From contig JAAFIK010000020.1 of assembly GCA_013298665.1 (NCBI GenBank), forward strand, positions 9,635-73,634: a DNA stretch of 64,000 nt, given 5' to 3'. The notes beneath the pieces are model-generated. The model did not search any database and had not been told where the DNA came from. It worked only from the letters and a program-made list of their open reading frames with translations. The position numbers were made by a program, and so were the translations under genes. This document shows, one piece after another, positions 13,858-64,000 of this stretch (its first letter is position 1; the number at the start of each line of letters is the position of its first letter). The stretch is from Chitinophagales bacterium (GTDB lineage Bacteria > Bacteroidota > Bacteroidia > Chitinophagales > Chitinophagaceae).

Positions 13858-13928
13858 CAGCGGGTCTCAGACAGCGGGTCTCAGACAGCGGGTTTACCCC
13901 GATGTTTACCCCGATGTTTACCCCGATG
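13858..13928. repeat. Two adjacent microsatellite-like tandem repeats (14-mer about 2.6 copies, 12-mer 3 copies)
   Basis: cagcgggtctcaga at 13858 and 13872, with a partial copy at 13886. tttaccccgatg at 13893, 13905 and 13917. Confidence 0.85.
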
Positions 13929-14719: not shown

Positions 14720-15561
14720 TTGTTTGTGTTTGTTGATTCATTGTCGCTTGCTGAGCAGGGCTATACGGGTAACGGGCTGTGTCATACAGGGGAAAGGGAA
14801 ACTTTATATACTGGCGGTGTATGGTATGTTTCAGTACATCGGGTCAGGGGATTGCAGGATTAGCGATATTGGGGGCTTGTCAAAAACAGGGTGGTGGGCT
14901 TAACCCTGCATTGGGGTTACCGGAAAAGGTCAAAACGTGCATTCGGATGAAAGCGGTCATCAAAAGTATAAAAATTATCATGATTTATTTCGTTTTCCGC
15001 AAAACAATTACATAGAATTTATCCGGATAGAACCTTCTCCGCAATGCCATCGTTGATTTCACTTGCCGGTACAGCAGCATACAGCAATCAAGCCTGTTTG
15101 TCATGGAAGGGTAATAAAAAGAAGGGGCTATCGATTTCGTAAAAACCGAAATGGATTTTAGTAGTTTCCTGCTTGTGTGCTTCCGGGGTAAAAATTACTT
15201 TCGCTCTGTCAATATTTCCAGGCTGACAAGTAATGTACACACGATGCAACCGATGATGCACATGTCTTTGACCTGGTCTCTTTACACCTGTAGCATCCTG
15301 AATAAGCATAGTACGGTTTAACCCCGAATTTTGCAGCCAACAACAAAATCCGGGCTAACAGGTTGGCGCGGCTGACCTTTCTTCAGTATTGCCTGTATAG
15401 TCGTCTGAAAATTGTCATTTGCCAGGTTGATTGTTACCTGCTGCAGCGATAGCTGTACGTACTATTTATGAAAACGGTTGGCCACTCACGTGCATCACCT
15501 TCATCCGGGCCTATTGGTGGTGCCCGGTGCCATGCCCGGGTCTTCACTCATCCATTGTATT

Positions 15562-27390: not shown

Positions 27391-27561
27391 ATGACAGCAC
27401 AACACATCTTATCCGTTATCAAAACGGCAGAAGCCGCGGGTATTGCTTTCTTTGTTGAAGACGGGGTACTCCGTATCCGCAAATCAAAAGGGGTTGTGCT
27501 CAGTGAGGCATTACTCCGGGAAGTACAGGCATACAAGCAGGAGATACTGACCCACCTGTCT
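27391..27561 (+). other. TubC-N-like beta-hairpin docking domain at the NRPS-2 N-terminus
   Basis: HILSVIKTAEAAGIAFFVEDGVLRIRKSKGVVLSEALLREVQAYKQEILTHLSG precedes the first C domain. The pattern matches the TubC N-terminal docking fold: helix, beta-hairpin (L-R-I/V-R/K), helix. Confidence 0.7.
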
Positions 27562-36500: not shown

Positions 36501-39500
36501 GGTAGTCCTTACCGGGGGTACGGAAGCGGAAAGGATTGCACAAATCATTGCCGGCAGTGGTATGCCCGGGGGGACAAGGGTGGTTGATACCGATACTGAT
36601 GAACATGTAATCAGCATCCAACCCACCACGGCGCCGGATGCTGGTATTGATGAAACAAACCTGGCGTATATGATCTACACGTCAGGCTCAACCGGTCAGC
36701 CCAAGGGGGTAATGATTGAACACCGTCACCTGATAGATTATGTACACGGTTTACGCGCCGCTATTGCACTTGATGCCTGCCGGTCCTTTGCCCTTGTATC
36801 AACACCCGCCGCAGACCTTGGCAATACGGTGATTTACGGCGCGCTGTTGTCCGGTGCCACACTCCATATTTGCCCGCGTGAAATGGTCAGTAACGGAAGC
36901 CTGCTCATGGATTATTTTCAGGAGCAGGCCATCGACTGTTTGAAAATAGTGCCCTCACACTGGAAAGCACTGTGCATAGGACAGGAGCTGCTGCTGCCGC
37001 AAAAACTGTTGATTTTTGGTGGGGAAGCATTACCGAAACAGGTTGCTGAAAGCATCAGTGCTGCAGGGTACAGTTGTACAGTAGTCAATCACTACGGGCC
37101 TACGGAAACCACCATTGGCAAGCTGCTCCACCAGTATGTTCCCGGTACTTTGTATGGTCGTCATATTCCCATCGGTCAGCCATTCTCCGATACACAGGTA
37201 TATGTGCTGTCACCGGACGCTGCCATTTGTCCTGTTGGTATTCCCGGCGAAATCTGCATCGCGGGTGCAGGTGTGGCGCGCGGATATTATCAACAACCCG
37301 GGCTTACTGCAGAAAAATTTATAGCCAACCCTTTTGCGGGCGGTCATGAAGGCGGGCGGTTGTATAAGACCGGCGACCGGGGACGGCTGCTGCCCGATGG
37401 CAATATTGAATACCTTGGCCGTACAGACGACCAGGTCAAAATCCGCGGGTACCGGGTTGAACCCGGCGAAATTGAACAGGCATTGCTGCAGTTGCCCTTT
37501 GTCAACGAAGCCGTAGTGCTGGTTAAAGAAGATGATAAAAACGAAAAGCGCCTGGCCGCCTTTGTGGTCACCGCAACTCCGTTCAGCAGGGATATTATCA
37601 TGGACGCATTGCGTACACGATTGCCGGAATACATGATACCGCCGATACTCCTGACGGTAGATGCGGTACCCCTCACGGCCAACGGTAAGGTCAACAGGAA
37701 GTTGCTGCTGGATATGGATACTGCTGTGCTGCCCCAAGCCGGCTTTGCAGCGCCCCGCAACGATATTGAAACCACATTGACCACCCTTTGGCAGGAATTG
37801 CTTGAGGCAGACCGTGTAGGCATACACGATAATTTTTTTGAACTGGGTGGCGATTCGATCATTGCCATACAGGTGGTGAGCCGGGCACGGCGATCGGGCT
37901 ATGAACTGCAGGTGGGCGATATTTTTGAATACCAGACCATTGCAGGTCTGTCAGACTACTGGTCGTCGCGCACCAGTCTTTCGGCATCACCCGCTGTGCA
38001 GGCACTCCCGGGCGAACCCTTTGGTTTACTGCCCATCCAGCGCTGGTACCTGGAGTCTGCTCCCGCTGTTCCTTCCCATTTTAACCAGGCCGTCCTGCTG
38101 TCAATCCGCAAGACCCTCACCCCCGGGCAGGTACAGCAGGCCATTGATGCACTGGTACACCACCATGATGCCCTGCGGCTTTGCTTTACCTGTCATGACG
38201 GGCATTGGCAGCAAACCTATGGTGCTTCACCGGTGGCATTGGGGCTTACCGATCTGCAAACCGTAAGCGCGGCTGATTTTACCGCCACCCTGGAGCAGCA
38301 CAACGACCAGGTTCAGCACCAGCCCGACATCACCCGCGGGGAGTTGCTCCGGCCTGTACTGGTCCTTACCCCCGGCTTTGAAGCGGACAACCGTTTACTG
38401 CTGGTCATTCATCACCTGGTGATTGATGGGGTATCCTGGCGTATCCTGCTCGAAGACCTTTCGCAACTGCTTGTTCGTGCCGATGCGTTGCTGCCGGCAA
38501 AGACGGCACCCCTGCACCACTGGCTGAGTACCCTTTGGGCTTATGGGCAGCAGGCTGCTGTACAGGCAGAAGAAGCCTGGTGGACAAGCGTATTGTCGCA
38601 ATACCGGCCGCTGCCCACCGATCATGATTATCCTGCCCCCTTAGTTTTTGAAGACCTTTCAACCTGCCATATCCGGCTTGATGCCGGTCATACCCAATCG
38701 CTGCTGCATGCGCTTCCATCAATCTTCCATACCCGTGTCAACGACGTACTGCTGGCTGCACTGGGTACCGCACTCTGTTCTTTTGGTGATTGTACGCAGG
38801 TGGTGGTGGGTCTTGAAGGCCACGGCCGCGAGCAGGTGGCAGGCGATACCGATATCAGCCGTACGGTGGGTTGGTTTACGCAGATGTACCCGGTATTGCT
38901 GGGTGGAAGTAATGGCAATCCCGGTGATACGCTCAAAAATACCAAGGAGCAATTGCGGCGGGTACCGGGTAAGGGTATGGGGTATATGGTGCTGAAATAT
39001 CTTACAGGATCAGCAGCTCTGCAGCAGGGAAGCGGCTGGGATGTGGTGTTCAATTACCTGGGTCAGTTGGACAATGCAGCCGGGGACAATGATTTGTGGT
39101 GTATTGCACCGGAATCTGCGGGTAATACGATCAGCGGACTGAACGGCACGGGCTACCGGCTGATCATCAACAGTATGGTCGAGGGTGGTGAGTTGCGGAT
39201 GAACTGGTTGTACAGCCGCCGCCATTATGACCATGCAACGATAGAAGGGCTTGCGCAGTTGTATGTGCGTTCGCTTGAAGCACTGGTTGATTACTGCCTG
39301 TTGCAGGATAAGCCTGTGTTCACGCCCTCGGATTATGGTATAGGCGATGCCGTGAATTATGAAGAACTTGATGCGTTTCTCGCCGCAGGGGAGGGGGGCA
39401 GTACCCGTGGAGACCAGATTGAGACGATGTACCGGTTGAGCGCACTCCAGCAGGGGATGTTGTTTCACAGCCTCTATGAAGGAAGGGCAGGGATCTACGC

Positions 39501-42500: not shown

Positions 42501-45500
42501 GCAACAGGGCATTGGTCATGGTATGCTCGTGCCTGTGTGTATGCAGCGCAGTGCTGAAATGGTAATAGCCCTGCTTGCCGTACTCAGAACCGGTGCCGGT
42601 TTTATACCCATAGATCCGATATTTCCAAACGGACGCATCGCATATATGCTGGACAACGCAGGCTGTCGTTGCATCATCGCCGATACGCACGGAACAGCAC
42701 TGCTGCCGGATAATGCGGCCTTGCAGATACTCAATCCGGATCTGGCCACCGCTGATATTGCTGCAATGCCTGTGACGCCCCCCGCTTTCCGTCCCACGCC
42801 CGCAGACACGGCTTATGTTATTTATACCTCCGGCTCAACCGGTCTGCCCAAAGGCGTTGCCATCGGCCACCAGTCATTGGTCAACTTTATATATGCCATG
42901 AAACAGTTGCTGCAAACAGACCAGCACTGCCGCCTGTATTCGGTAACTACTTTCTGTTTCGACATTTTTTATCTCGAACTTTTCCTGCCATTGCTCTCCG
43001 GTGGCCAGGTCATCATTGCACAAAAAGATCAATTGCAGGATGGCGACCAGTTGAGGGCGGCATTGAACCGGTACCAGCCCACACACCTGCAGGCTGTACC
43101 CGTGATGTGGCAGATGCTGGTGAACAGCGGCTGGACGAATGAGGAGCAACTGGTCATCCTTACCGGCGGAGAGGCCATAAGCGAACACCTTAAAGATACA
43201 TTATGCAGATTGGGTACGCAGAAAGTCTGGAACCTTTATGGGCCAACAGAAACGACCATCTGGTCGGTAGCCGGTGAACTGCTTGCAAGTGAGCCCGTTA
43301 CCATCGGTAAGCCCATTGGTAATACACAGGTGTACATCACCAATGCAACAGGCCGGTTGCAACCCATCGGTGTGGCGGGGGAATTGCTCATAGGTGGGGA
43401 CGGACTTGCCAAAGCCTACCTCAACCGTCCCGATCTTACGGATGAGCGGTTTGCACCATTGCATATTGAGGGTATCGGCAACCGAAGGCTTTACCGTACA
43501 GGCGATCTTGCCAAATGGCTGCCTGACGGGCGCCTGATCTGTCTCGGGCGTACAGATGAGCAATTAAAAATAAATGGTTACCGTATTGAGCCGGGGGAAA
43601 TAGAAGCCTTACTGCTCCGGGTTACCGGCGTGGAGCAGGCTGTGGTAGTGATGCAGGAAGATCCGCAGCAGGGCAGACGCCTGGCGGGTTTTCTGGTAAC
43701 CGGTGCGGGTTACGACCAGTCGATGGTGGCAGCATACCTCAGCAGGTATATTCCCGGGTATATGATTCCAAGGATATTGGTCAGCCTGCCGCAACTGCCC
43801 CTCACGCCAAATGGCAAAATTGACCGGAAAGCATTGCAGCAGACACCCGCAGTACCCTCCGCTTCAACGGCATACGAAGCGGCTCAAACGAATACCGAAG
43901 AAGTACTGGTCAGGATATGGCAGGATATACTGGGGGTAACCCCGGTAGGCATACACGATAATTTCTTTGAACTGGGTGGGGATTCGATCATTGCCATACA
44001 GGTGGTGAGCCGCACCCGGCGGGCCGGGTACCCATTGTCACCCAGGGAGCTGTTTGAACATCCCACCATTGCAGGTCTGTCAGACTACTGGTCGTCGCGC
44101 ACCAGTCTTTCGGCATCACCCGCTGTGCAGGCACTCCCGGGCGAACCCTTTGGTTTACTGCCCGTCCAGCGCTGGTACCTGGAATCTGCTCCCGCTGTTC
44201 CTTCCCATTTTAACCAGGCCGTCCTGCTGTCGATCCGCAAGACCCTCACCCGCGGGCAGGTGCAGCAGGCCATTGATGCACTGGTACACCACCATGATGC
44301 CCTGCGGCTTTGTTTTACCTGTCATGACGGGCATTGGCAGCAAACCTATGGTGCTTCGCCCGTGGCATTGGGGCTTACCGATCTGCAAACCGTAAGCGCG
44401 GCTGATTTTACCGCCACCCTGGAGCAGCACAACGACCAGGTTCAGCACCAGCCCGACATCACCCGCGGGGAGTTGCTCCGGCCTGTACTGGTCCTTACCC
44501 CCGGCTTTGAAGCGGACAACCGTTTACTGCTGGTCATTCATCACCTGGTGATTGATGGGGTATCCTGGCGTATCCTGCTCGAAGACCTTTCGCAACTGCT
44601 TGTTCGTGCCGATGCGTTGCTGCCGGCAAAGACGGCACCCCTGCACCACTGGCTGAGTACCCTTTGGGCTTATGGGCAGCAGGCTGCTGTACAGGCAGAA
44701 GAAGCCTGGTGGACAAGCGTATTGTCGCAATACCGGCCGCTGCCCACCGATCATGATTATCCTGCCCCCTTAGTTTTTGAAGACCTTTCAACCTGCCATA
44801 TCCGGCTTGATGCCGGTCATACCCAATCGCTGCTGCATGCGCTTCCATCAATCTTCCATACCCGTGTCAACGACGTACTGCTGGCTGCACTGGGTACCGC
44901 ACTCTGTTCTTTTGGTGATTGTACGCAGGTGGTGGTGGGTCTTGAAGGCCACGGCCGCGAGCAGGTGGCAGGCGATACCGATATCAGCCGTACGGTGGGT
45001 TGGTTTACGCAGATGTACCCGGTATTGCTGGGTGGAAGTAATGGCAATCCCGGTGATACGCTCAAAAATACCAAGGAGCAATTGCGGCGGGTACCGGGTA
45101 AGGGTATGGGGTATATGGTGCTGAAATATCTTACAGGATCAGCAGCTCTGCAGCAGGGAAGCGGCTGGGATGTGGTGTTCAATTACCTGGGTCAGTTGGA
45201 CAATGCAGCCGGGGACAATGATTTGTGGTGTATTGCACCGGAATCTGCGGGTAATACGATCAGCGGACTGAACGGCACGGGCTACCGGCTGATCATCAAC
45301 AGTATGGTCGAGGGTGGTGAGTTGCGGATGAACTGGTTGTACAGCCGCCGCCATTATGACCATGCAACGATAGAAGGGCTTGCGCAGTTGTATGTGCGTT
45401 CGCTTGAAGCACTGGTTGATTACTGCCTGTTGCAGGATAAGCCTGTGTTCACGCCCTCGGATTATGGTATAGGCGATGCCGTGAATTATGAAGAACTTGA

Positions 45501-45546
45501 TGCATTCATGGATGATAATGAAACCGATGATGTGATGACCTTCTGA
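27391..45546 (+). CDS. NRPS-2: dock-C-A-T-C-A(MT)-T-C-A-T-E-C-A-A-T-E (6051 aa)
   Basis: C motifs HHIAFDGWS (x2), HHIAFDAWS and HHMIMDGWS. Five A cores (YTSGSTG[KRQNL]PKG). T cores GGHSL (x2) and GGDSI (x2). E motifs HHLVIDGVSW (x2). No carrier domain between the 4th and 5th A domains. Confidence 0.95.
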   Translation: MTAQHILSVIKTAEAAGIAFFVEDGVLRIRKSKGVVLSEALLREVQAYKQEILTHLSGQDGAPDTRHYKITPASPATGYLPLSFAQERLWFIHHLHGSVQYHLPWVYRLNGRVDRERLANAFLTIIERHTILRTVIAEAEGEPYAVCRPAHEWRMGYRKEALTAAEKYAAADAFVRTPFDLTADFPLRVLLISTGEEEHMLVGVVHHIAFDGWSVGILIQELTALYQNPLAQLPLLPIQYSDFAAWQKQTISDDVITQQAAYWKENLAAVQSCALLTDFVRPAVERHTGAVVSIPISKPLTEALAALSRQEGVTLFMTLLAAYQVLLYRYTGQTDTCVGTPVAGRRQEEVEGLIGFFVNTLPLRNPVNAGDTFRDILLRVKQAALGAYENQDISFERIVEELALTRDLSRSPIFQVMFALQQEVPRSIQLGDVQGLAESPATITAQYDLSLEATQTPDGLIFSLTYCTALYKAATAMGMLDHYVNLLEAVVADAGQEAGQLSMLTADEQHQLLYRFNDTAMPIPEPCSIIAWFHQQVLHRPSATALVFDGEVFCYRQLDEQSNQLAHYLRQSGIKQHDLIPVAMQRSTTMIITLLAVLKTGAAFIPVDPVFPEDRVQYMLEDAQCRWMITHDACQDLAAYHGQATIINTDTCSAAIAGMPQSPLHTTAAADDLVYTIYTSGSTGKPKGVMIEQRSLVNFIMAMQRLLHTGPDCAFYAVTTFCFDIFYLEMFLPLLSGGKLILADRETVQDGYRLRKALAQHRPTHMQAVPAMWRLLLDCDWCNEENIQVLVGGEAVSVPLKEELTRLCQQPVWNLYGPTETTIWSTAGLLPAGDVVTIGRPIGNTQVYITDAQLGLQPIGVPGELYIGGNGLARGYLNRPELTAEKFIIHSFDEQAHSHQRIYRTGDIAKWLPDGRLVYLGRADEQVKIRGYRIEPGEIEALLLQAAGVRQTVVLAQEDSRQERQLVAFIVPDEHYTQPDIIQYLQKHLPAYMVPAIWVTVPHIPQTPNGKADRKALLNNTVMPLATREYAEARNSTEEMLVAIWQDTLGVAQVGIHDNFFELGGHSLQAMRIISAIRKRMGKEIPVKMLFQFPAIALLAPRLSDTHEGDVLPSIATRTRDTVIPLSFAQERLWFIDRLQGTVQYHMPRVFYIRGRLDVAALEAAFTMILRRHEVLRTVIHTAEGRGEQKILAMDNWAVTHVSAGANGLMDKHAVSSHIRRCIEEPFDLGRDSMLRVMLITAGVDDYVLVVCAHHIAFDGWSIDIMQREWIACYRGLSSGGQIDLPVLPVQYADYAIWQRQYLAGHVLETKLAYWKKQLEGLQPLALPADYTRPAAQGTLAGHVHTPIPPSLVDALGKISQAAGATLFMSMATLLNLLLHRYTNQEDIAIGSPVANRNQPELEGLIGFFVNSIVLRNTVSSTLSFLDLLGRVKAVTMEAYAHQDTPFEKIVEAVVKDRDRSRNPVFQVMLLLQDAAAMTLPEDCLGDGLRLTDDGEDHVANKFDLVFTITEGTAAVDLGITYNAELFAQATIERMGRHFVALLASAVQQPESPAGELPMLDKAETDLLLRVYNDTAVSYPAAATVIDWFEAQVQRTPGATAVVFEQVSLSYQALNACVNQLAAHLRSLGVQQEVLVPVCLNRSINMIAGILGILKAGAAYVPVDPEYPEERIRFMLEDTAAKWILTTSDLSLPLSEDQSAINLDLLWPQISHLDTHNPVRLAEPGNLAYVIYTSGSTGRPKGVMIEHAGLFNRLAWAQGQYALTPEDIVLQKTTFCFDVSVWELIWPLLTGASLVLAKPGGHKDSAYLRQVCADRGITLMHFVPAMLEVFLADIRAGDCATLKKILCSGEALTPSQVKLCKEKLPGVALHNLYGPTEASIDVTYWAAPTAAADITTVPIGKPVANTRLYILDQRGRLMHAGGIGELCIAGIQVARGYLNLPELTAEKFMPDPFYPAAGAAGRMYRTGDLARWQQDGNIAFLGRNDDQVKIRGFRIELGEIEYALSTAAGVSGVKVIARAAQPGEDKQLLGYIQVDHLQRPLLYNYQTLVRTGAVNGADLRILPNGLPLLHANPNEVDFLYREIFAEQCYLRHGISLQADSCVFDVGANIGCFTVFLNLLHPGITVYSFEPIPAVFTYLHQNRYLYDVRGKAFPIALLESEQDISFTYYPQMSIVSGIGSNQDAVKEVVSAYATSSGADLAPAEMEALLAAKLTHQQVTSHARTLSQVISDEGITRIDLLKIDVENSEHLVLQGILDADWQKINSLVVEVHDVDGRVAAIMDMLVGRGFTVHAEKEEILSRTHGLYNLYAVRDTNAKGLVMQDSTPHRRIQEWESPHDFTRRLHGHLEQQLPPYMLPAQWILMDRFPITANGKIDKTALPFPAQEPGNHPHVLPRTIMETQLADLWQGLLNRKTIGAYDDFFECGGHSLLAMRLVAAIRRVLLREMPVRTVFDHPVLADLAVLLEQMPASILPPVAIREPGKKNPLSFYQERLWFAGQLHGNQPYLMPWLFSIQGMLNIPALEEAFRRVIARHEILRTVIREADGIGYQLIRDHTLAVMNHVTAGSILEMGYAGTGAYLDALAGETFDLANDDVLRITLIRETADAYLLFLVVHHIAFDAWSVAIMVEELTHIYNAICEGDTPVLKPLPVQYADYACWQRTYFNAAVLQERMAWWQQQLAGVEPLALLTDFPRPDKPGFDGAVVSAITSKEFQQQLTDFCRQEGVTLFMVLLTALKALLYRYTGQQDICVGTSVAARQQPELESLIGFFVNTLALRSEVEGNHAFRTLLQQVRATTLSAYEYQDVPFEKVVEALGVERELNRNPLFEVILVLENTPPAGALNFGAAQLRPVDYGTAAAKFELTVGIAETENGLLLNMVYRRDLFRAETMTTMLDHYITLLMTGVANAGTAINDCLRINPLTGTAGGSVLHTAVACPAGITVPEMFARQVQRVPEQVALVFRQQSLTYRELDRRANQWAHYLQKLGVGAEQPVPVCMERGMDMLTGILAVMKAGGAYVPVDPDFPDGRIRYILEDTMPGVVLTGGTEAERIAQIIAGSGMPGGTRVVDTDTDEHVISIQPTTAPDAGIDETNLAYMIYTSGSTGQPKGVMIEHRHLIDYVHGLRAAIALDACRSFALVSTPAADLGNTVIYGALLSGATLHICPREMVSNGSLLMDYFQEQAIDCLKIVPSHWKALCIGQELLLPQKLLIFGGEALPKQVAESISAAGYSCTVVNHYGPTETTIGKLLHQYVPGTLYGRHIPIGQPFSDTQVYVLSPDAAICPVGIPGEICIAGAGVARGYYQQPGLTAEKFIANPFAGGHEGGRLYKTGDRGRLLPDGNIEYLGRTDDQVKIRGYRVEPGEIEQALLQLPFVNEAVVLVKEDDKNEKRLAAFVVTATPFSRDIIMDALRTRLPEYMIPPILLTVDAVPLTANGKVNRKLLLDMDTAVLPQAGFAAPRNDIETTLTTLWQELLEADRVGIHDNFFELGGDSIIAIQVVSRARRSGYELQVGDIFEYQTIAGLSDYWSSRTSLSASPAVQALPGEPFGLLPIQRWYLESAPAVPSHFNQAVLLSIRKTLTPGQVQQAIDALVHHHDALRLCFTCHDGHWQQTYGASPVALGLTDLQTVSAADFTATLEQHNDQVQHQPDITRGELLRPVLVLTPGFEADNRLLLVIHHLVIDGVSWRILLEDLSQLLVRADALLPAKTAPLHHWLSTLWAYGQQAAVQAEEAWWTSVLSQYRPLPTDHDYPAPLVFEDLSTCHIRLDAGHTQSLLHALPSIFHTRVNDVLLAALGTALCSFGDCTQVVVGLEGHGREQVAGDTDISRTVGWFTQMYPVLLGGSNGNPGDTLKNTKEQLRRVPGKGMGYMVLKYLTGSAALQQGSGWDVVFNYLGQLDNAAGDNDLWCIAPESAGNTISGLNGTGYRLIINSMVEGGELRMNWLYSRRHYDHATIEGLAQLYVRSLEALVDYCLLQDKPVFTPSDYGIGDAVNYEELDAFLAAGEGGSTRGDQIETMYRLSALQQGMLFHSLYEGRAGIYAEQFSCVFTGLNEEWFVRCWNRLLQQHTILRTAFYHDVFDIPVQCVCKEISLPLSVHDFSHFPAAIGEEKCRVYALEDRERGFRLDKAPLMRLSLLKLGDGHCRMVWTYHHMIMDGWSLPVLMESFLNSYEALAAGRLPRILPEDRYEEYIRFMERRNTQREEAFWREYMAGVAGPVLLPFCETAERNKGVGIYGMSSCVLDAAVTAAVQAFAQQHHITINTLVQGIWAYLLYRYTGQHDIVYGVTVSGRPDDMARIEHRVGMYINTIPLHAVIAEDQAWADWLQGVQQGQLSARVHQYAALNDIQRWINQPGDLFDTVLVYENYPVNQVLSSGKWRLQTTDIRQEGKTNYLLYMIAQVTTTINIQFHYNSSLLPAVYAGQINADFTRVLTQVVSVPGMLLADTVLFSTAAPEAETNPSAADGYANIYSGSIVECFGKQAAQKPDAIALVFEDNQWSYRELDERSNQLAHYLRDTGVAEQTIVPVCMDRSATLIITILAILKAGGTYVPVDPAYPAHRIRHMLEDTGSTLLLTGVHLPAGIDDLQDFRIISINTLAGHLSEQPMTPLCGKAAPDSLACILYTSGSTGNPKGVMVSHSNIVSLVYGMDAMRPEPGDVLLATGSPAFDATTYEYWGTLLNGARLVICSHETLLDGTLLHTVVQQQRVNKMWFTSGWFNQLVETVPELFAALGAVIVGGDRLSAHHIRRLQVLYPRLQMFNGYGPTENTTFSTIYAIPPAYAHDAVPIGRAIAYRSAFVLDHCRRICPPGVPGELYVGGAGLSKGYWRQETLTAERFLTMANLGRLYRTGDKALQQADGNIIFLGRTDDQVKIRGYRVEPGEIEAVLLKADGVVQAAVVLTPDAAGVKRLVAYVVPQTMYDVHALCHHLREHLPGYMVPHTIVALPELPLTGNGKVDRKTLAVMAAAPQQPATPFAILTPEERTLLLHQFNDTDMLYPRDKTLIDLLDEQAAMTPDAPALLFDIQQLSYGSLVRHSNQLAHYLLQQGIGHGMLVPVCMQRSAEMVIALLAVLRTGAGFIPIDPIFPNGRIAYMLDNAGCRCIIADTHGTALLPDNAALQILNPDLATADIAAMPVTPPAFRPTPADTAYVIYTSGSTGLPKGVAIGHQSLVNFIYAMKQLLQTDQHCRLYSVTTFCFDIFYLELFLPLLSGGQVIIAQKDQLQDGDQLRAALNRYQPTHLQAVPVMWQMLVNSGWTNEEQLVILTGGEAISEHLKDTLCRLGTQKVWNLYGPTETTIWSVAGELLASEPVTIGKPIGNTQVYITNATGRLQPIGVAGELLIGGDGLAKAYLNRPDLTDERFAPLHIEGIGNRRLYRTGDLAKWLPDGRLICLGRTDEQLKINGYRIEPGEIEALLLRVTGVEQAVVVMQEDPQQGRRLAGFLVTGAGYDQSMVAAYLSRYIPGYMIPRILVSLPQLPLTPNGKIDRKALQQTPAVPSASTAYEAAQTNTEEVLVRIWQDILGVTPVGIHDNFFELGGDSIIAIQVVSRTRRAGYPLSPRELFEHPTIAGLSDYWSSRTSLSASPAVQALPGEPFGLLPVQRWYLESAPAVPSHFNQAVLLSIRKTLTRGQVQQAIDALVHHHDALRLCFTCHDGHWQQTYGASPVALGLTDLQTVSAADFTATLEQHNDQVQHQPDITRGELLRPVLVLTPGFEADNRLLLVIHHLVIDGVSWRILLEDLSQLLVRADALLPAKTAPLHHWLSTLWAYGQQAAVQAEEAWWTSVLSQYRPLPTDHDYPAPLVFEDLSTCHIRLDAGHTQSLLHALPSIFHTRVNDVLLAALGTALCSFGDCTQVVVGLEGHGREQVAGDTDISRTVGWFTQMYPVLLGGSNGNPGDTLKNTKEQLRRVPGKGMGYMVLKYLTGSAALQQGSGWDVVFNYLGQLDNAAGDNDLWCIAPESAGNTISGLNGTGYRLIINSMVEGGELRMNWLYSRRHYDHATIEGLAQLYVRSLEALVDYCLLQDKPVFTPSDYGIGDAVNYEELDAFMDDNETDDVMTF
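33500..34340 (+). other. FkbM-family methyltransferase domain inserted in the second A domain of NRPS-2, between cores A8 and A9 (approximate bounds)
   Basis: VFDVGANIGCFTVFL (SAM-binding GxNxG) and RIDLLKIDVENSEHLVLQG are hallmark FkbM/Methyltransf_21 blocks. Flanked by KIRGFRIELGEIE (A8) upstream and LPPYMLP...ANGKIDK (A9/A10) downstream. Confidence 0.8.
37936..39374 (+). repeat. E-domain repeat copy 1 (NRPS-2 module 3 epimerase)
   Basis: 1439 bp matching 44065..45503 at a constant offset of 6129 bp (in frame). About 8 mismatches are visible, all within the first ~310 bp. I found no mismatch from about 38250 to 39374. Confidence 0.9.
40790..42250 (+). other. NRPS-2 fourth A domain, Val-like code, not followed by a carrier domain (approximate bounds)
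   Basis: Cores LYTSGSTGNPKG, NGYGPTENTT, GELYVGGAGLSKGY, YRTGD, GRTDDQVKIRGYRVEPGEIE and LPLTGNGKVDRK (A10 at 42222-42245). Hand-extracted code DAYWIGGTFK. Confidence 0.8.
42301..43840 (+). other. NRPS-2 fifth A domain, Gly code, beginning with a C-A-linker-like motif 18 codons after the previous A10 (approximate bounds)
   Basis: LTPEERTLLLHQFNDT (42301-42348) parallels LTADEQHQLLYRFNDT at the C1-A1 junction. Cores IYTSGSTGLPKG, NLYGPTETTIWS, YRTGD and TPNGKIDRK. Hand-extracted code DILQLGLIWK. The A8 core reads KING instead of KIRG. Confidence 0.8.
44065..45503 (+). repeat. E-domain repeat copy 2 (NRPS-2 terminal epimerase)
   Basis: See copy 1. Several minus-strand shadow ORFs are amino-acid identical between the copies (38395..38625 = 44524..44754, 38648..38995 = 44777..45124 and others). 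Identity ends at 39375/45504, where copy 1 continues into a C domain and copy 2 into the tail MDDNETDDVMTF-stop. Confidence 0.9.
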
Positions 45547-45626
45547 CCTGAAAATGGTCTTCCCGGCACAAATGCCGGGGATAAAATTATTCGCTGCACT
45601 TATCACTAAGAAAAAATACAACAACA

Positions 45627-54600: not shown

Positions 54601-57600
54601 GCCGTCTTTGCCCGCCCGGTGTACCCGGAGAGTTGTATGTTGGCGGTGCAGGTCTCGCCAGGGGATACTGGAAACAGCCGGAGCTCACCGGTGAAAGGTT
54701 TACCGAAATTGCGCCCTTCGGGCGTTTATACCGGACCGGCGATATGGCATATGCCCGGCCGGATGGCAACCTCATTTTTCTTGGCAGGGACGATGAACAG
54801 GTAAAGATCCGGGGTTACCGCGTTGAACCCGGAGAAGTTGAGCGCCTCCTGGAAGAAGCACCGGGTATCCGGCAGGGCGTTGTGGTGGTGGCACGCGACA
54901 CGGCAGGTATAAAATGCCTCGTGGCTTATGTCATTCCGGGTGATGATTATGAAAGCGGGGCTGTAACCGGTTACCTGAAAGCACGGTTGCCGGAGTATAT
55001 GGTACCACAGGCGGTTGTTCCGGCGGAGCAATTGCCATTAACGGGCAATGGTAAGGTTGACCGTAAGGCTTTGGCCGCCCAACCCTTACCCGATGGTACG
55101 CATAGTGAAGCCACAGGATATATTGCACCCGCTACGTCAACCGAAGCCATACTGGCAGCGTTATGGGAAACCCTGCTCAGTAAGAAAAGGATCGGTACCC
55201 GGGATGATTTTTTTGCGCTCGGGGGGCATTCCATCATGGCCATGCGCCTGGCATCCGATATCCATAAAACCCTGCTCAAAGAACTGCCCATACGGGATAT
55301 ATTTGAACACCCCACGATTGCGGAACTGGCAGCAATACTGGAAAATATTTTACCCGATGCGGTTCCCTTACTGCCCTGCCGGGAAGAGGGGATTAACATA
55401 CCGCTTTCATTTTCCCAGGAACGCCTCTGGTTTATCGACCAGTTGCAGGGCTCCGTTCAATACCATATGTCATGGCTGTTCCGGCTGAAAGGTACCCTTA
55501 ACGTTGCAGCGCTGGAAGCTGCCTTTACAACCATTGTACAAAGGCATAGCGTGCTGCGTACTGTTGTACAGGAAATGGATGGCATCGGTTACCAGCAGGT
55601 TAATCCGGCGGCTGACTGGAAGATGGTGTATATAACGGTACCGGATATCATCGCCGGCAACACCACCGTAGAGGAGTACATCCGGGAGCGGGTACAAACA
55701 CCTTTCAACCTCGCCGCCGATCCCATGCTCAAAGTGACCATGATACAGGTAGCTGCAGATGAACATATCCTCTCCACCCTGTTTCACCATATTGCTTTTG
55801 ACGGTTGGTCCATCAGTATTATGGTTGATGAACTGGTGCAGCTTTACCACAGTTTTGTTGCAGGACAGCCGGATAAACTGACGCCCCTGCCTGTGCAATA
55901 TGCCGACTATGCCATCTGGCAGCGCGAGCACCTTTCCGGCAGCCGGCTCAACGCCAAGCTGGCCTACTGGAAAAATAAGCTGTCGGGTCTCCAGCCGCTC
56001 AACCTGCCCACAGATTATGTGCGCCCGCCTGTGCAGAGTACAAAGGGGCAAAGCATAAAATTTGTTATTGAACCCGCATTGACGGCACGTCTTGAACAAT
56101 GGGCGCAGGTACACGGCGCAACGCCCTTTATGGCCCTGCTCACGGCTTTTAAAATACTGTTGTACCGTTATACCGGTCAGCCGGATATTGCTGTAGGCAC
56201 ACCCGCTGCCAATCGTTTGCAACCTGCGGCTGCACCACTGATCGGCTTTTTTGTCAATACCCTTGTGCTCCGGGATTGTATTGACGGGGAAAGCGATGCA
56301 TGTACACTTCTGCAGCAGGTGAAAACAACCGCGCTCGAAGCCTATGCCGAACAGGATACGCCGTTCGAGAAAGTGGTGGAAGCCGTAGCTGTGGAAAGGA
56401 ATATGGACAATTCCCCGCTTTTTCAGGTGTTTTTCGCCCTGCAGAACATTCCTGAAGTAAAACCACTCAGCTTTGCCGGTGTTGAACTGTCGGTTATACC
56501 CGCAGCAACCGAAACGGCCAAGTTTGACCTGTATTTTGATTTTACACAGACACCCGAAGGCCTGCATACGCTTGTACAGTTTTGTACAGACCTGTTCAGT
56601 CCCGATACCATCAGCAGGATGTTTATGCACTTCAGGCAATTACTGGTATCCATGCTTGACCAGCCTGCGCAGAAGATCAGCCGCCTCAATATGCTGACCC
56701 CCGCAGAAGAGGCACAGTTGAATGATTTTAACAATACCGCACAGCCCTTTCCTGAAGGGGCAAGCATAACCGGTTGGTTTGAAGAACAGGTCAGGCAAAC
56801 ACCCGCCAGACCCGCGGTGGTGATGAACGGGGAGTCGCTCAGTTATACCGCATTAAACCGGCAGGCTAATATACTGGCAAACCGGCTTTTGTCAACCGGC
56901 GTGCAACCGGGTAGCCGGGTAATCGTTTGCACAGAGCGTTCCTTTGGAATGATTGCAGCCGTACTGGCTGTTCTTAAGGCGGGTGCCACCGTGGTGCCGG
57001 TAGATCCGGGATATCCTGCAGAACGGATTGCCTTTATGCTGCAGGATGCGGCTGCAACGGCCATACTCAGCAGCACCCGTTGCATGGGTATTGTACCCGC
57101 AACGGTCGGCCTGTCCCTGATCCTTGTTGATGAAAGCGGTAAGGATCATACGGATGCAGCACAGGAAAATCCGGCTATGGTTACCGATCCTGCAATACCC
57201 GTTTACCTCATTTATACTTCCGGGTCAACCGGCAAACCCAAGGGCGTATTACTGCCCCGGCAGGCCCTGCAGAACCTTTTGTACTGGCAGCACCGGTGCG
57301 GAGTGAACCGTCCGGGTGAAAGGATCCTCCAGTTTGCCAGCCTCAACTTTGATGTCAGCTTTCAGGAGATCGGCAGCGCCCTGTGTTTTGGACATACCCT
57401 TTGTCTCGTTGATGAAGACCTCCGGAAAGATATGCAGGAACTGACCAGCCTGATCAACCGGGAAGCGCTTACGCAATTGTTTATTCCTTATGTGGTACTG
57501 AAAAACCTGGCTGAATATGCCGGCCAGTCCGGTAGCTATCCCACTACTATCCGGGCCATATTTACTGCCGGCGAGCAGCTCCGTCTTACAGAAGATATCC

Positions 57601-58613: not shown

Positions 58614-58799
58614 ATGTCTGATTTTGATTTAGCCGAAGTTATTGGCCTTTTGCAAAAGGCCGAAGCGCTTGACGTCAGGCTTTCCTGCGAAAAGGATGAA
58701 CTTGTGGTGAAGGTCAATCGCGAAAAAAGACCCGATGCACAATTCCTTGATGCCTTGCGAAACCATAAGGTACACCTGCTGGAATACTTCAGGCAATAT
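58614..58799 (+). other. TubC-N-like docking domain at the NRPS-4 N-terminus
   Basis: LAEVIGLLQKAEALDVRLSCEKDELVVKVNREKRPDAQFLDALRNHKVHLLEYF precedes the first C domain. Confidence 0.65.
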
Positions 58800-61700
58800 G
58801 CACAGACCAAACTCAATACCAGTGAAGTAAATATCCCCCTGCTGCAACCGGGTACGGTTGTTCCGCTTTCCTTTGCGCAGGAGCGTTTGTGGTTTATGCA
58901 CGGTATGCAGGGCGACCTGCCTTACCGGCTGCACTGGCTTTTTGAGCTGAACGGTCAACCCGATATTGCGCTGCTGGAGAATGCTTTCCGCCTGGTGATG
59001 GATCGCCACGAGGTATTGCGTACGACGATCCGGGAGAAGGGTGGTGTTGGTTTTGCACAGCTTCTTGCTGCGCAGGACTGGCAATTGCATACGGTATCCG
59101 CTGCATCCCTTGCCCGCCTGGGTTACCGCACGGGTATGGACTATATCCATCACCTGTCTGGTATTCCCTTCGACCTCACCTGCGACTATATGTTGCGGGT
59201 AACCCTTGTGGAGACGGGCCCATCGGGCTGGTTGCTGTCAGCCCTTGTTCACCATATTGCCTTTGATGGCTGGTCTATCGGGATCATGGTGCGTGAGCTT
59301 GTAGAGTGTTACAACAGCCTTATGGCCGGCCGTGCGCCTTTATTATCCCCATTACCGATCCGGTACAGCGACTATGCGGCCTGGCAGCGGGATTACCTGC
59401 AGGGTGCGGTGGCTGCTGATAAACTGGCCTACTGGTGCAACCAGCTCAGTGGGGTGTCTGCTTCAGCCCTGCCCGCCGATTATGCACGCCCTGCCCGGCA
59501 AAGCGGCCGTGGTGGCGCGGTCCGTCACCTGCTTGATCCGGCATTGCAGCAGTTGCTGCAGCAGTATGCGCGTAGTGAAGGCGTTACCCTGTTTATGCTG
59601 CTGCTGGCTGCTTTTAAAGTACTGCTGTACCGCTACAGCCGCCAGGAAGACATCTGTGTGGGTACACCGATTGCCGGCCGGCAGCAACAGGAAACAGAAG
59701 GGCTGATCGGCTTTTTCATCAATACCCTTGCCCTTCGCAGCAGGGTAGACCCGCAGCAATCTTTTGCTGTTTTTTTACAACAGGTCAAACAATGCACATT
59801 GTCTGCTTACGAGCACCAGGACCTGCCCTTTGAGAAGATCGTACAGGCGCTGGGTATCGAACGCGATCCGGGGAGGAGCCCTTTGTTCCAGGTGGTCTTT
59901 GCACTGCACAATACACCCGAGTCTGCCCCCTTACAACTGGGCAGCCTTGCCCTTCAGCCGGTAGATAGCGGTGAGATTACGGTACAGTACGACCTTGACC
60001 TTAATGCGACCGGGACGGCTGAGGGCATTGTACTGGTGATGACCTATTGCAGCGACCTGTACAAAGGTGCAACGGTTGTCCGGTTGCTGGAACATTATGA
60101 ACAATTGCTTCGTTCAGCCCTTGCAGCAAGCGATACAGAAGTGGCTGCGTTGCCATGGGTGAGTGCGGCAGAACAGCAACTGCTTGCGGCCTGGAATGAT
60201 ACCGGTGTTGCTTATCCGGTAACGGCGACGGTTACGGATCTTTTTGCCGCACAGGTGCAGCACCACCCGATGAGTACTGCACTGGTGATGGGGGAAGAGC
60301 GTATGTGTTACCGGGAGCTGGATGCGGCGGGTAACCGTTTGGCCAACTACCTTATACAGGCAGGAGTTGTTCCCGGCACTGCCATTGGTTTACTGTCGCA
60401 CCGGGGTATGGGCATGCTGGTGGGTATCTGGGGCATCCTGAAGGCTGGTGGTATCTATGTTCCGCTCAATATGGATTATCCGGCCAGCCGTCTGCAGCAT
60501 ATCGCCACCGATGCTGCTGTTCGCTTTATTGTGCATGGTGAGGATTGCGATCCTGCTGATTACGGGTTGGGTGATCATGGTGTGCTGGTGGAGGTTACCG
60601 CCGGTGAGTACTATCCCGATACGCTGCCTTTGGTGAAGACCGCTGCCGGTGATGGGGTGTATATCATGTACACTTCCGGTACCACGGGTAAGCCCAAGGG
60701 TATACTGGTTACCCATACCAATATCATCAAACTGGTGAGCGATCCCGGTGCGATCCGCATATTCCCCGATGATCATGTACTGCAATGGTCGAACTATGCC
60801 TTTGATGGTTCGGTGTACGACATTTTTGGTGCGCTGCTCAATGGGGCCTGTCTGCACCTGATTGGTGATATTGCTGCCGATGTGTATGCGCTGGGTAAGC
60901 AGATTGAAGCAGAAAAGATCAGCATCAGTTTTTTTACCACGGCACTGTTCAACAGTTTTGCTGATGCCTGTCCCGGCAGCCTTGCCGGTATGCGCCGGAT
61001 ATTGGTGGGCGGGGAGCAGTTGTCCGCCCCGCATGTGCGCAGGGTGTTTGACCTGCTTGGTCCCGGCCGTATTGTGAATGGATATGGTCCTACCGAAACA
61101 ACGGTTTTTGCCACCTGTCATGTTTTTGATGTATTGGAAGAAGGTGCTGTACCCATTGGCAAACCGCTGGGCAATACGCGTGTGTTATTGCTTGATGGGC
61201 AGGGTAATCCCGTGCCCATCGGCGTTGAGGGAGAGTTGTATATAGGCGGGGCTGGTGTTGCTGCGGGTTATGTGAACAATGAGGCGCTTAGCCTTACGAA
61301 ATTTGTCAATATAGACGGCGCGCGTTATTACCGCAGTGGCGATATTGTACGCTGGAATGATAAGGGGGAGTTGCTGTTTACGGGCAGGATGGACGGACAG
61401 GTGAAGCTTCGTGGTTACCGCATTGAATTGGGTGAGATAGAAGCGGTACTGTTGCGCAGCGGTGGTGTTCGGCAGGCTGTGGTGCTGCTGCATACCGATG
61501 AGCAGGAGAACAAACGTTTGGCGGCGTTTGTGGTAACGGACAGTAGTTATGATAGTTTTCTTACCCAGGCACTGCTTCGGGCGTCTTTACCGGAGTATAT
61601 GGTACCGGGTATATGTATGGTAGTACCGGCGCTGCCGCTGACCGGCAACGGTAAGGTAGATCACCGTGCATTGCTGTCGGGGATCCGTCCGGGTACTGTG

Positions 61701-64000
61701 GTACAGGAGCGTGCGGCACCCCGTACGGAAACGGAGAAGGCATTGGCGGTTATCTGGGAGGAGTTACTGGATATAGCGGCGGTGGGTATCCATGATGATT
61801 TTTTTGACCTTGGTGGTCACTCCCTGCTCGCTGTGCGTGTACTGTCGGCGATCCGCAGCAGTTTTGGTAAGGAGCTTGCCATCCGCGATATGTTCGATAC
61901 GCCAACGATTGCCGGTCTTGCCGCGCTGATCAGCAATGAAGATACTGCTGCAGAGGCGCGGCCATCCATCCGCCCCGGGCAGCGACCGGATAGGGTTCCG
62001 CTTTCCTTTGCGCAGGAGCGTTTGTGGTTTATGCACGGTATGCAGGGCGACCTGCCTTACCGGCTGCACTGGCTTTTTGAGCTGAACGGTCAACCCGATA
62101 TTGCGCTGCTGGAGAATGCTTTCCGCCTGGTGATGGATCGCCACGAGGTATTGCGTACGACGATCCGGGAGAAGGGTGGTGTTGGTTTTGCACAGCTTCT
62201 TGCTGCGCAGGACTGGCAATTGCATACGGTATCCGCTGCATCCCTTGCCCGCCTGGGTTACCGCACGGGTATGGACTATATCCATCACCTGTCTGGTATT
62301 CCCTTCGACCTCACCTGCGACTATATGTTGCGGGTAACCCTTGTGGAGACGGGCCCATCGGGCTGGTTGCTGTCAGCCCTTGTTCACCATATTGCCTTTG
62401 ATGGCTGGTCTATCGGGATCATGGTGCGTGAGCTTGTAGAGTGTTACAACAGCCTTATGGCCGGCCGTGCGCCTTTATTATCCCCATTACCGATCCGGTA
62501 CAGCGACTATGCGGCCTGGCAGCGGGATTACCTGCAGGGTGCGGTGGCTGCTGATAAACTGGCCTACTGGTGCAACCAGCTCAGTGGGGTGTCTGCTTCA
62601 GCCCTGCCCGCCGATTATGCACGCCCTGCCCGGCAAAGCGGCCGTGGTGGCGCGGTCCGTCACCTGCTTGATCCGGCATTGCAGCAGTTGCTGCAGCAGT
62701 ATGCGCGTAGTGAAGGCGTTACCCTGTTTATGCTGCTGCTGGCTGCTTTTAAAGTACTGCTGTACCGCTACAGCCGCCAGGAAGACATCTGTGTGGGTAC
62801 ACCGATTGCCGGCCGGCAGCAACAGGAAACAGAAGGGCTGATCGGCTTTTTCATCAATACCCTTGCCCTTCGCAGCAGGGTAGACCCGCAGCAATCTTTT
62901 GCTGTTTTTTTACAACAGGTCAAACAATGCACATTGTCTGCTTACGAGCACCAGGACCTGCCCTTTGAGAAGATCGTACAGGCGCTGGGTATCGAACGCG
63001 ATCCGGGGAGGAGCCCTTTGTTCCAGGTGGTCTTTGCACTGCACAATACACCCGAGTCTGCCCCCTTACAACTGGGCAGCCTTGCCCTTCAGCCGGTAGA
63101 TAGCGGTGAGATTACGGTACAGTACGACCTTGACCTTAATGCGACCGGGACGGCTGAGGGCATTGTACTGGTGATGACCTATTGCAGCGACCTGTACAAA
63201 GGTGCAACGGTTGTCCGGTTGCTGGAACATTATGAACAATTGCTTCGTTCAGCCCTTGCAGCAAGCGATACAGAAGTGGCTGCGTTGCCATGGGTGAGTG
63301 CGGCAGAACAGCAACTGCTTGCGGCCTGGAATGATACCGGTGTTGCTTATCCGGTAACGGCGACGGTTACGGATCTTTTTGCCGCACAGGTGCAGCACCA
63401 CCCGATGAGTACTGCACTGGTGATGGGGGAAGAGCGTATGTGTTACCGGGAGCTGGATGCGGCGGGTAACCGTTTGGCCAACTACCTTATACAGGCAGGA
63501 GTTGTTCCCGGCACTGCCATTGGTTTACTGTCGCACCGGGGTATGGGCATGCTGGTGGGTATCTGGGGCATCCTGAAGGCTGGTGGTATCTATGTTCCGC
63601 TCAATATGGATTATCCGGCCAGCCGTCTGCAGCATATCGCCACCGATGCTGCTGTTCGCTTTATTGTGCATGGTGAGGATTGCGATCCTGCTGATTACGG
63701 GTTGGGTGATCATGGTGTGCTGGTGGAGGTTACCGCCGGTGAGTACTATCCCGATACGCTGCCTTTGGTGAAGACCGCTGCCGGTGATGGGGTGTATATC
63801 ATGTACACTTCCGGTACCACGGGTAAGCCCAAGGGTATACTGGTTACCCATACCAATATCATCAAACTGGTGAGCGATCCCGGTGCGATCCGCATATTCC
63901 CCGATGATCATGTACTGCAATGGTCGAACTATGCCTTTGATGGTTCGGTGTACGACATTTTTGGTGCGCTGCTCAATGGGGCCTGTCTGCACCTGATTGG
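58614..64000 (+). CDS. NRPS-4 (3' partial): dock-C-A-T-C-A...
   Basis: Absent from the ORF track because no stop occurs before the window end. ATG at 58614 opens MSDFDLAEVIGLLQKAEALDVRLSCEKDELVVKVNREKRPDAQFLDALRNHKVHLLEYF..., followed by LSFAQERLWF, HHIAFDGWS, MYTSGTTGKPKG, GNGKVDHRAL and FFDLGGHSLLAVRV, then the same C-A sequence again. The frame is open to base 64000. Confidence 0.9.
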   Translation, partial: MSDFDLAEVIGLLQKAEALDVRLSCEKDELVVKVNREKRPDAQFLDALRNHKVHLLEYFRQYAQTKLNTSEVNIPLLQPGTVVPLSFAQERLWFMHGMQGDLPYRLHWLFELNGQPDIALLENAFRLVMDRHEVLRTTIREKGGVGFAQLLAAQDWQLHTVSAASLARLGYRTGMDYIHHLSGIPFDLTCDYMLRVTLVETGPSGWLLSALVHHIAFDGWSIGIMVRELVECYNSLMAGRAPLLSPLPIRYSDYAAWQRDYLQGAVAADKLAYWCNQLSGVSASALPADYARPARQSGRGGAVRHLLDPALQQLLQQYARSEGVTLFMLLLAAFKVLLYRYSRQEDICVGTPIAGRQQQETEGLIGFFINTLALRSRVDPQQSFAVFLQQVKQCTLSAYEHQDLPFEKIVQALGIERDPGRSPLFQVVFALHNTPESAPLQLGSLALQPVDSGEITVQYDLDLNATGTAEGIVLVMTYCSDLYKGATVVRLLEHYEQLLRSALAASDTEVAALPWVSAAEQQLLAAWNDTGVAYPVTATVTDLFAAQVQHHPMSTALVMGEERMCYRELDAAGNRLANYLIQAGVVPGTAIGLLSHRGMGMLVGIWGILKAGGIYVPLNMDYPASRLQHIATDAAVRFIVHGEDCDPADYGLGDHGVLVEVTAGEYYPDTLPLVKTAAGDGVYIMYTSGTTGKPKGILVTHTNIIKLVSDPGAIRIFPDDHVLQWSNYAFDGSVYDIFGALLNGACLHLIGDIAADVYALGKQIEAEKISISFFTTALFNSFADACPGSLAGMRRILVGGEQLSAPHVRRVFDLLGPGRIVNGYGPTETTVFATCHVFDVLEEGAVPIGKPLGNTRVLLLDGQGNPVPIGVEGELYIGGAGVAAGYVNNEALSLTKFVNIDGARYYRSGDIVRWNDKGELLFTGRMDGQVKLRGYRIELGEIEAVLLRSGGVRQAVVLLHTDEQENKRLAAFVVTDSSYDSFLTQALLRASLPEYMVPGICMVVPALPLTGNGKVDHRALLSGIRPGTVVQERAAPRTETEKALAVIWEELLDIAAVGIHDDFFDLGGHSLLAVRVLSAIRSSFGKELAIRDMFDTPTIAGLAALISNEDTAAEARPSIRPGQRPDRVPLSFAQERLWFMHGMQGDLPYRLHWLFELNGQPDIALLENAFRLVMDRHEVLRTTIREKGGVGFAQLLAAQDWQLHTVSAASLARLGYRTGMDYIHHLSGIPFDLTCDYMLRVTLVETGPSGWLLSALVHHIAFDGWSIGIMVRELVECYNSLMAGRAPLLSPLPIRYSDYAAWQRDYLQGAVAADKLAYWCNQLSGVSASALPADYARPARQSGRGGAVRHLLDPALQQLLQQYARSEGVTLFMLLLAAFKVLLYRYSRQEDICVGTPIAGRQQQETEGLIGFFINTLALRSRVDPQQSFAVFLQQVKQCTLSAYEHQDLPFEKIVQALGIERDPGRSPLFQVVFALHNTPESAPLQLGSLALQPVDSGEITVQYDLDLNATGTAEGIVLVMTYCSDLYKGATVVRLLEHYEQLLRSALAASDTEVAALPWVSAAEQQLLAAWNDTGVAYPVTATVTDLFAAQVQHHPMSTALVMGEERMCYRELDAAGNRLANYLIQAGVVPGTAIGLLSHRGMGMLVGIWGILKAGGIYVPLNMDYPASRLQHIATDAAVRFIVHGEDCDPADYGLGDHGVLVEVTAGEYYPDTLPLVKTAAGDGVYIMYTSGTTGKPKGILVTHTNIIKLVSDPGAIRIFPDDHVLQWSNYAFDGSVYDIFGALLNGACLHLI
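58860..61994 (+). repeat. Tandem module duplication, copy 1 (complete C-A-T module, 3135 bp = 1045 codons)
   Basis: Sequence from 58860 onward is reproduced from 61995 onward at a constant offset of 3135 bp. I saw no mismatch in the lines compared. Shadow ORFs are amino-acid identical (58894..59106 = 62029..62241, 59332..59706 = 62467..62841, 59463..59759 = 62598..62894, 59764..59964 = 62899..63099). Confidence 0.9.
61995..64000 (+). repeat. Tandem module duplication, copy 2 (truncated by the window end)
   Basis: Matches 58860..60865. The left breakpoint falls at the T-C linker, immediately before VPLSFAQERLWF. Confidence 0.9.

Follow-up and report, generated by a model that had tools for sequence, protein, structure and literature searches.

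How did the terminal nonribosomal peptide synthetase (NRPS) of a lipopeptide cluster come to hold two neighbouring modules with the same DNA sequence, and did the second copy lengthen the peptide? The question is raised by 64,000 nucleotides of DNA from a Chitinophagales bacterium (Chitinophagaceae; GenBank assembly GCA_013298665.1, contig JAAFIK010000020.1, positions 9,635 to 73,634 of the forward strand), referred to here as the window. The last gene of the window, N4, carries a long direct repeat of a condensation-adenylation-thiolation (C-A-T) module. An initial annotation had described this repeat as an apparently perfect tandem duplication and had offered three explanations for it: a very recent duplication that adds one residue to the product, continuing gene conversion, or an assembly artefact. 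In this study, the repeat was followed into the full-length protein and compared with the closest relative of N4. The repeat probably is genuine and reflects the homogenisation of two adjacent modules by very recent recombination, and by predicted domain content the module number is unchanged relative to the nearest relative.

The window was compared with itself. Positions 58860-60865 are identical to positions 61995-64000, where the window ends, at 2006 of 2006 bp and at an offset of 3135 bp; at this offset, identity in the remainder of the window is 17-36%. The base preceding the two copies differs (T at 58859, G at 61994). N4 starts with the ATG at 58614 on the forward strand, and its frame is open to the window end (58614..64000; stop inferred at about 67658). 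Codon 83 (GTT, Val) begins at position 58860, so the offset equals exactly 1045 codons. The self-comparison and the gene frame thus bear out the coordinates and the period given in the initial annotation, and the left breakpoint, which it had placed at the T-C linker, is the first codon of the C domain. The remaining module pairs of the window are about 65-69% identical in self-BLASTN, apart from a thiolation-epimerization (T-E) repeat described below. Against this background of about 66%, an identity of 100% is far above chance or ordinary paralogy. The only novel junction, 61994|61995, lies on a codon boundary, and the sequence at 61973-62010 joins T1 to C2. The constant offset is equal to the unit length, the repeat covers one full period, and a single novel junction is seen, as in a tandem duplication. 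Both edges are sharp and fall on a module boundary; the same pattern would result from a gene-conversion tract that spans one period or more.

The gene continues beyond the window, where the extent of copy 2 is known from its protein; the DNA comparison covers the first 2006 bp of that copy. A protein search with the 1795-aa translation from the window returned P0001, a 3014-aa protein encoded on a 78,413-bp NCBI contig, at 100% identity and coverage; this contig is taken to be the record from which the window comes. P0001 consists of a docking-like region (aa 1-82), two C-A-T modules (aa 83-1127 and 1128-2172), and a C domain (aa 2173-2605) that is followed by a 50-aa linker, a T domain (aa 2656-2721), and a thioesterase (TE) domain (aa 2758-2998). 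Pfam accordingly recognises three Condensation, two AMP-binding, three PP-binding, and one Thioesterase domain. When residues 83-1127 were aligned with residues 1128-2172, a single mismatch was found, Ala1089/Thr2134 in the T domain; the codon of Ala1089 is GCC at 61878..61880 (+), and this is the sole difference between the copies at the protein level. The absence of mismatches, stated earlier for the part inside the window, therefore holds there, and beyond the window there is at least one difference. Identity stops after exactly one period, at RPDR|V in the first copy and RPDR|I in the second (Val1128/Ile2173), and C3 shows just partial similarity to C1. The right breakpoint, which the initial annotation had left to be defined, is thus located through P0001: the repeat comprises one full period, ends at aa 2172, and is present in exactly two copies in the deposited protein.

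Judged from the domain scans of P0001, the repeat unit is one complete C-A-T module that includes the T-C linker; it opens with the first codon of C and closes with the linker's last codon, in agreement with the earlier description of the unit. Copy 1 (58860..61994, +, aa 83-1127), delimited by the offset comparison, the domain scans, and intact motifs, holds its C domain at 58860-60185, its A domain at 60243-61655, and its T domain at 61734-61949, with the T-C linker extending to 61994. In the visible part of copy 2 (61995..64000, +), which matches copy 1 at every position, the C domain occupies 61995-63320 and the A domain begins at 63378 and is cut by the window end; judged from the protein, copy 2 would end at about 65129 (aa 2172). 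The three Condensation stretches score 935 bits in total, and the motif HHIAFDG occurs at aa 213, 1258, and 2302. Each of the two A domains has one AMP-binding and one AMP-binding_C match and the core motifs SGTTGKPKG (A3), NGYGPTE (A5), YRSGD (A7), GRMDGQVKLRG (A8), and NGKV (A10). The carrier motif reads GGHS at aa 1067 and 2112 and GGYS at aa 2681, each within a PP-binding match. The strong GC skew of the A-T part of the repeat (+0.19) was considered as evidence of a foreign origin and discarded as such, the skew being attributed to amino-acid composition; the skew at third codon positions in this part is +0.18, compared with up to +0.22 in the other domains, and so is at the top of the range.

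The substrate specificity of the two A domains was predicted from the Stachelhaus code, with a GrsA fragment as the control for code extraction (DAWTIAAICK). The code is DGYFLGGVFK in both domains. It agrees at 7 of 10 positions with the isoleucine code of bacitracin synthetase, DGFFLGVVYK (PMC2866473), which was also the only find of a literature search for the exact code. With this agreement, the earlier designation 'Ile/Val-like' is reasonable. Since the catalytic motifs are intact in both copies, N4 is predicted to add the same branched-chain hydrophobic (Ile-like) residue twice in succession, ahead of the last module and release by TE.

N4 begins with 82 residues of unique sequence, left of the repeat (58614..58859, +). 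These residues fall below the cutoff of the TubC_N docking domain (PF18563; 21.2 bits versus a cutoff of 26 bits, E = 3e-4), and the region is therefore termed docking-like only. The N-terminus of another synthetase of the cluster, N2, passes the same model with 33.3 bits. The docking-like region of N4 is kept in the orthologue described next (F4; phmmer, 80 bits).

A close orthologue of P0001 was found in a Ferruginibacter metagenome-assembled genome (MAG; locus L001). This protein, P0241, has 3473 aa and is colinear with P0001 and 62% identical to it, the docking region included. A search of 5.8 billion clusters with 2342 aa of the Ferruginibacter relative as the query gave an orthogroup of these two proteins only, and the next best match was 42% identical. 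Metagenome contigs were also scanned with generic T-domain motif patterns anchored on T3-TE; no orthologue was found among them, and the best match was 38% identical.

The layout of the orthologue is dock-C-A-T-C-A-T-C-A-T-TE. The first two modules are of the Ile type, with the codes DGYFLGVVYK and DGYFLGGVFK; the code in the window is that of the orthologue's A2 and differs from that of its A1. At the same positions as the repeat, the orthologous locus of this one relative thus holds two diverged paralogues, with protein identities of 56% (C), 72% (A), and 74% (T) and DNA identities of 66% (C) and 74% (A-T). Near-identical DNA tracts between modules 1 and 2 of the orthologue were looked for, and none was found. 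Because two Ile-type modules are already present in the orthologue, the event in the window lineage would have replaced or homogenised a module and not lengthened the peptide relative to the family. The statement that the duplication adds one extra residue is consequently unsupported: the colinear orthologue has two Ile-type modules plus a third, and the repeated C domain pairs with its C1.

This pairing was obtained in a neighbour-joining tree, in which the repeated C domain of the window and C1 of the orthologue form a pair with 100% bootstrap and C2 of the orthologue stands outside the pair (69.5%). The topology places the C1/C2 split before the split of the two lineages. C2 of the orthologue is thus probably the older paralogue, and the ancestral second module of the window lineage was probably overwritten or re-created very recently. 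With moderate confidence, the C2-type domain can be said to be lost from the window lineage. A clade with 100% bootstrap unites the three A domains, and their internal order is not settled by the tree (57.5%). Sites that match a single module of the orthologue were therefore counted by domain. In the C domain, 75 sites match module 1 only and 44 match module 2 only; the counts are 34 and 57 in the A domain and 3 and 8 in the T domain plus linker (C versus A+T, Fisher p = 9e-5). The present unit is moderately supported as a mosaic of a C1-type C domain and an A2/T2-like part, the A-T portion being somewhat closer to module 2. As the comparison has a single outgroup, the three-module layout with two Ile-type modules is taken to be ancestral with moderate confidence only.

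The most parsimonious history that fits these observations would start from an ancestor with the order dock-C1-A1-T1-C2-A2-T2-C3-(A3)-T3-TE and two paralogous Ile-type modules; in the window lineage, one 1045-codon C-A-T unit, present in two head-to-tail copies, would have taken the place of this ancestral pair. Recombination inside the similar A domains may have fused modules 1 and 2 into one. An unequal crossover between C1 and C3, in their first dozen codons, may then have re-duplicated the fused module. The C-domain start is conserved as (V/I)PLS(F/Y)(A/G)QERLWF, and a crossover at this place would account for the exact coincidence of the junction with the first codon of C. The same end state could alternatively have been reached through one or two long gene-conversion events. 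Head-to-tail duplication and conversion over a full period or more leave the same pattern and are not strictly separable, and both are viable; the two-step history is favoured because a DNA identity of 66-74% is a poor substrate for homologous conversion over 3.1 kb and because the unit is a mosaic. Once alike, the copies would be kept identical by RecA-type recombination, which would also delete or amplify them. RecA-dependent recombination homogenises a 3.1-kb perfect direct repeat and also deletes or amplifies it in frame, so the strain-level variants in peptide length predicted by the initial annotation are a sound expectation.

The immediate ancestor may instead have had a single Ile-type module before C3, so that a simple tandem duplication lengthened the peptide by one residue. 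Such a net gain is unlikely. Two modules occupy this position in the nearest orthologue, and C1 and C2 separated before the two lineages did, so that there is no gain relative to the family, and the single-module intermediate is inferred and not observed. The signature is nonetheless that of a classic head-to-tail duplication, namely identity over one period and a single novel junction on a codon boundary; direct conversion between paralogues that are 66-74% identical, as in the relative, is mechanistically hard, and a net gain is also the final step of the two-step history proposed above. That the real genome has a third or further copy is very improbable. With short reads, a perfect tandem repeat forms a loop that is usually traversed the minimum number of times, and the assembly could represent this minimal path; the deposited protein, in contrast, has exactly two copies followed by the distinct C3, three modules are likewise the total in the relative, and no positive evidence for additional units was obtained.

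An assembly artefact, either the spurious expansion of one true copy or the homogenisation of two diverged copies by consensus or polishing, has to be weighed because the record is an unannotated 78-kb NCBI contig, probably a MAG, and because polishing of near-identical repeats can exaggerate perfect identity. Polishing cannot turn an identity of 66-74% into 100%, and the new join between T1 and C2 needs the support of reads and could not otherwise be assembled from a one-copy genome. The copies differ by one residue, and their flanks differ. All NRPS frames in the window are intact, including open reading frames of 6051, 4316, and 2775 aa, and the contig was also assembled through a dispersed exact repeat of 1142 bp, which suggests that long-range read information was available. 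Other projects have yielded equivalent repeats, on a contig of 3.08 Mb and a scaffold of 0.70 Mb, and Sanger sequencing verified one case in the literature (PMC7472662). We consider an artefact quite unlikely.

Several points weigh against homogenisation of an ancestral pair. One close relative was present in the searched collections, and the three ancestral modules are drawn from this single outgroup. The order within the A-domain tree has a bootstrap of just 57.5%, and the support for a mosaic origin is moderate. A1 and A2 of the orthologue may themselves have been partly homogenised already, and its C2 may have been imported later, so that the ancestor might have possessed one module. The right junction and the final 1129 bp of copy 2 are known from the protein, and the copy number and authenticity of the repeat are those of the deposited sequence.

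The frequency of such repeats was estimated in homologues retrieved by search, a sample biased to multimodular proteins. Among 232 NRPS proteins with a length of 2000 aa or more, 49 had a near-identical internal repeat. Two of these 49, from unrelated metagenome projects, resemble N4 in having a tandem repeat at a one-module offset with one amino-acid mismatch. In P0320, on a 3.08-Mb contig (ENA ERZ25071726), the repeat is 998 aa long with an exact DNA run of 2584 bp (L160, 6722-9305, offset +3168), and the unit, C-A plus the start of T, is nearly that of the window. In P0252, on a 0.70-Mb scaffold (ENA ERZ28598847), the repeat is 968 aa long with an exact DNA run of 2817 bp (L161, 4558-7374, offset +3135). 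P0252 has the same three-module layout from dock to TE as N4, and its unit is shifted relative to that of the window: it starts near the end of C1, runs through A and T, and takes in about three quarters of C2. Unlike N4, both proteins keep an A domain in every module, and they are just 38-41% identical to proteins of the N4/P0241 family. Shorter internal repeats were seen in P0102 (610 aa, one mismatch) and P0346 (548 aa, no mismatch).

Concerted evolution and duplication of NRPS and polyketide synthase (PKS) modules have been described, with the syringopeptin NRPS and the mycolactone PKS as extremes, and a model was proposed in which modules duplicate and are then trapped in a cycle of homogenisation (PMC4256081, Medema et al., 2014). 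As in those cases, modules within one synthetase of the window have been made or kept nearly identical by internal recombination. The window differs in that the unit is one complete C-A-T module bounded exactly at T|C and that its two copies are essentially undiverged (at least 2006 bp exact, one amino acid in 1045). In the cichofactin gene cluster (cif), A4 and A7 are 99.4% identical over 1251 bp, as verified by Sanger sequencing, and the repeats of the cichofactin, syringafactin, and jessenipeptin synthetases have very sharp identity bounds, which were read as recent duplication and replacement of one domain by another (PMC7472662, Götze et al., 2019). These repeats are likewise near-identical and inside NRPS genes; they concern A or A-T of non-adjacent modules and start after the C-A linker, whereas that of the window is tandem and includes the whole C domain. 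The repeat in N4 is therefore one more case of a well-documented, ordinary, and frequent mode of NRPS evolution, and its value is mainly that of a further example. If real, it is a clean natural copying of a whole C-A-T module with the boundary exactly at the T|C linker, and it bears on the debate over which exchange units are usable in NRPS evolution and engineering. The locus is predicted to be unstable, with in-frame deletion or amplification and strain-level peptides that differ by one Ile-like residue.

The third module of N4 has the order C-T-TE and no A domain (P0001 aa 2173-3014, about 65130-67658 in window coordinates). Within the 50-aa linker between C3 and T3, no AMP-binding match was found even at E <= 1. 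The orthologue retains a third A domain (L001, 15920-17440) that scores 107 bits with AMP-binding and lacks all five core motifs. An A domain that is degenerate in the orthologue and absent in N4 suggests that the domain decayed first and was then deleted, and the Ferruginibacter comparison is in this respect a small natural experiment that combines module homogenisation with decay and subsequent deletion of an A domain. C3, T3, and TE are as conserved as the other domains relative to the orthologue (C3 68%, T3-TE segment 62%), so the third module is probably functional. As this module has no A domain, its carrier would have to receive its substrate from an A domain at another place. The window contains no stand-alone A domain and no SyrC-like transferase. 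In a protein search with C3-T3-TE for other A-less terminal modules, the matches listed, which extend to 1.75 times the query length, were generic C-domain matches only.

A-less modules that are served in trans include the C-T-TE module of SyrE in syringomycin biosynthesis and a module of HMWP1 in yersiniabactin biosynthesis. An NRPS module without an A domain is also served in trans in WS9326A biosynthesis (PMC7539972). The C-T-TE module of N4 is like these modules in having no A domain of its own; it differs in that no loading partner lies in the window and that a relative still holds the degenerate A domain. We also considered a speculative reading, distinctly improbable, in which the cluster is in the middle of remodelling yet functional and non-colinear, so that C-T-TE is loaded by another A domain and the duplication is a compensatory rewiring and not a neutral homogenisation. 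The loader of T3 could then be the adjacent duplicated Ile-type A domain, which would give an Ile-Ile-Ile tail, or instead the surplus A domain of a C-A-A-T-E module in the second NRPS, N2.

Homogenisation, the reading preferred for N4, has a possible counterpart in N2. Two T-E didomains of this protein, one in module 3 (37789..39377, +) and one in the last module at the C-terminus (43918..45506, +), are 97.2% identical over 1590 bp, and TIGR01720 matches above its cutoff. They share an exact core of 1142 bp (38233-39374 and 44362-45503); mismatches rise gradually leftward of it, and on the right identity breaks off sharply where the E domain ends. This repeat looks like a gene-conversion tract, and its pattern indicates that intra-cluster homogenisation is active in the locus.

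Other irregularities were seen in the same synthetases. N2 contains two complete A domains that are 59 aa apart (40807-42234 and 42409-43818; aa 4473-4948 and 5007-5476), with the codes DAYWIGGTFK (Val-like) and DILQLGLIWK (Gly). There is no T or C domain between them, which makes the module C-A-A-T-E with precisely T-C absent, and the junction reads as an A10 motif fused straight to a C-A linker. In module 2 of N2, a methyltransferase of the FkbM family (33490-34590, aa about 2036-2400; PF05050, E = 7e-16) is inserted into and interrupts a Ser-type A domain with the code DVWHLSLIDK. N2 ends in an E domain and an acidic tail, and N3, which follows it, opens with A-T-E after about 35 N-terminal residues and has no C or docking domain there (N2 stop, intergenic region, and N3 start, 45547-45731); a condensation domain seems to be missing between the two proteins. 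In total, 13 A, 13 T, and 12 C domains were counted in the cluster, and A and T domains are not paired one to one. Taken at the level of domain architecture, these features suggest that the cluster has been repeatedly reshaped by internal recombination.

Upstream of N4, the cluster encodes N1, an NRPS with a fatty-acyl-AMP-ligase-like loading region (15478-23805), and the very large NRPSs N2 (27391-45546) and N3 (45627-58577). Accessory genes encode an S8 peptidase with a type IX secretion system (T9SS) sorting tail (10764-13412), a LuxR-type response regulator (14015-14719, -), an ABC transporter (23938-25581), and a CmlA-like diiron β-hydroxylase (25637-27268). In a genome contig scan, the closest relatives among the matches listed belong to the Chitinophagaceae. 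Chitinopeptin-type cyclic lipodepsipeptide clusters are known from Chitinophaga (PMC9248904, Brinkmann et al., 2022), and they share with the window an accessory set of an ABC transporter plus a transcription factor, an S8 peptidase, and a CmlA-like metallo-β-lactamase-fold hydroxylase. The NRPSs of the window are only about 40-47% identical to Chitinophaga proteins, and their predicted residue order is unlike that of the chitinopeptins. Also unlike the chitinopeptin clusters, the window shows no 2,3-diaminopropionate (Dap; sbnA/B) genes and no separate reductase gene. The likeness to chitinopeptin clusters is thus one of context and not of membership.

The window also encodes T9SS cargo, PorP/SprF genes, and peptidases. 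At its left end, PKD-domain repeats inside a large T9SS cargo protein (2124-2891 versus 2919-3671) represent ordinary paralogy, as do two adjacent M57 metallopeptidase genes (8788-9591 and 9783-10619, both on the minus strand) with about 68% DNA identity. Between the S8 peptidase and response-regulator genes, an 83-bp tandem repeat is present in 2.3 copies with 95% matches (13624-13813); its unit holds a GC-rich inverted repeat (GGCGGGGTATCACCCGCC). Tandem arrays of 14-bp and 12-bp units follow at 13857-13928.

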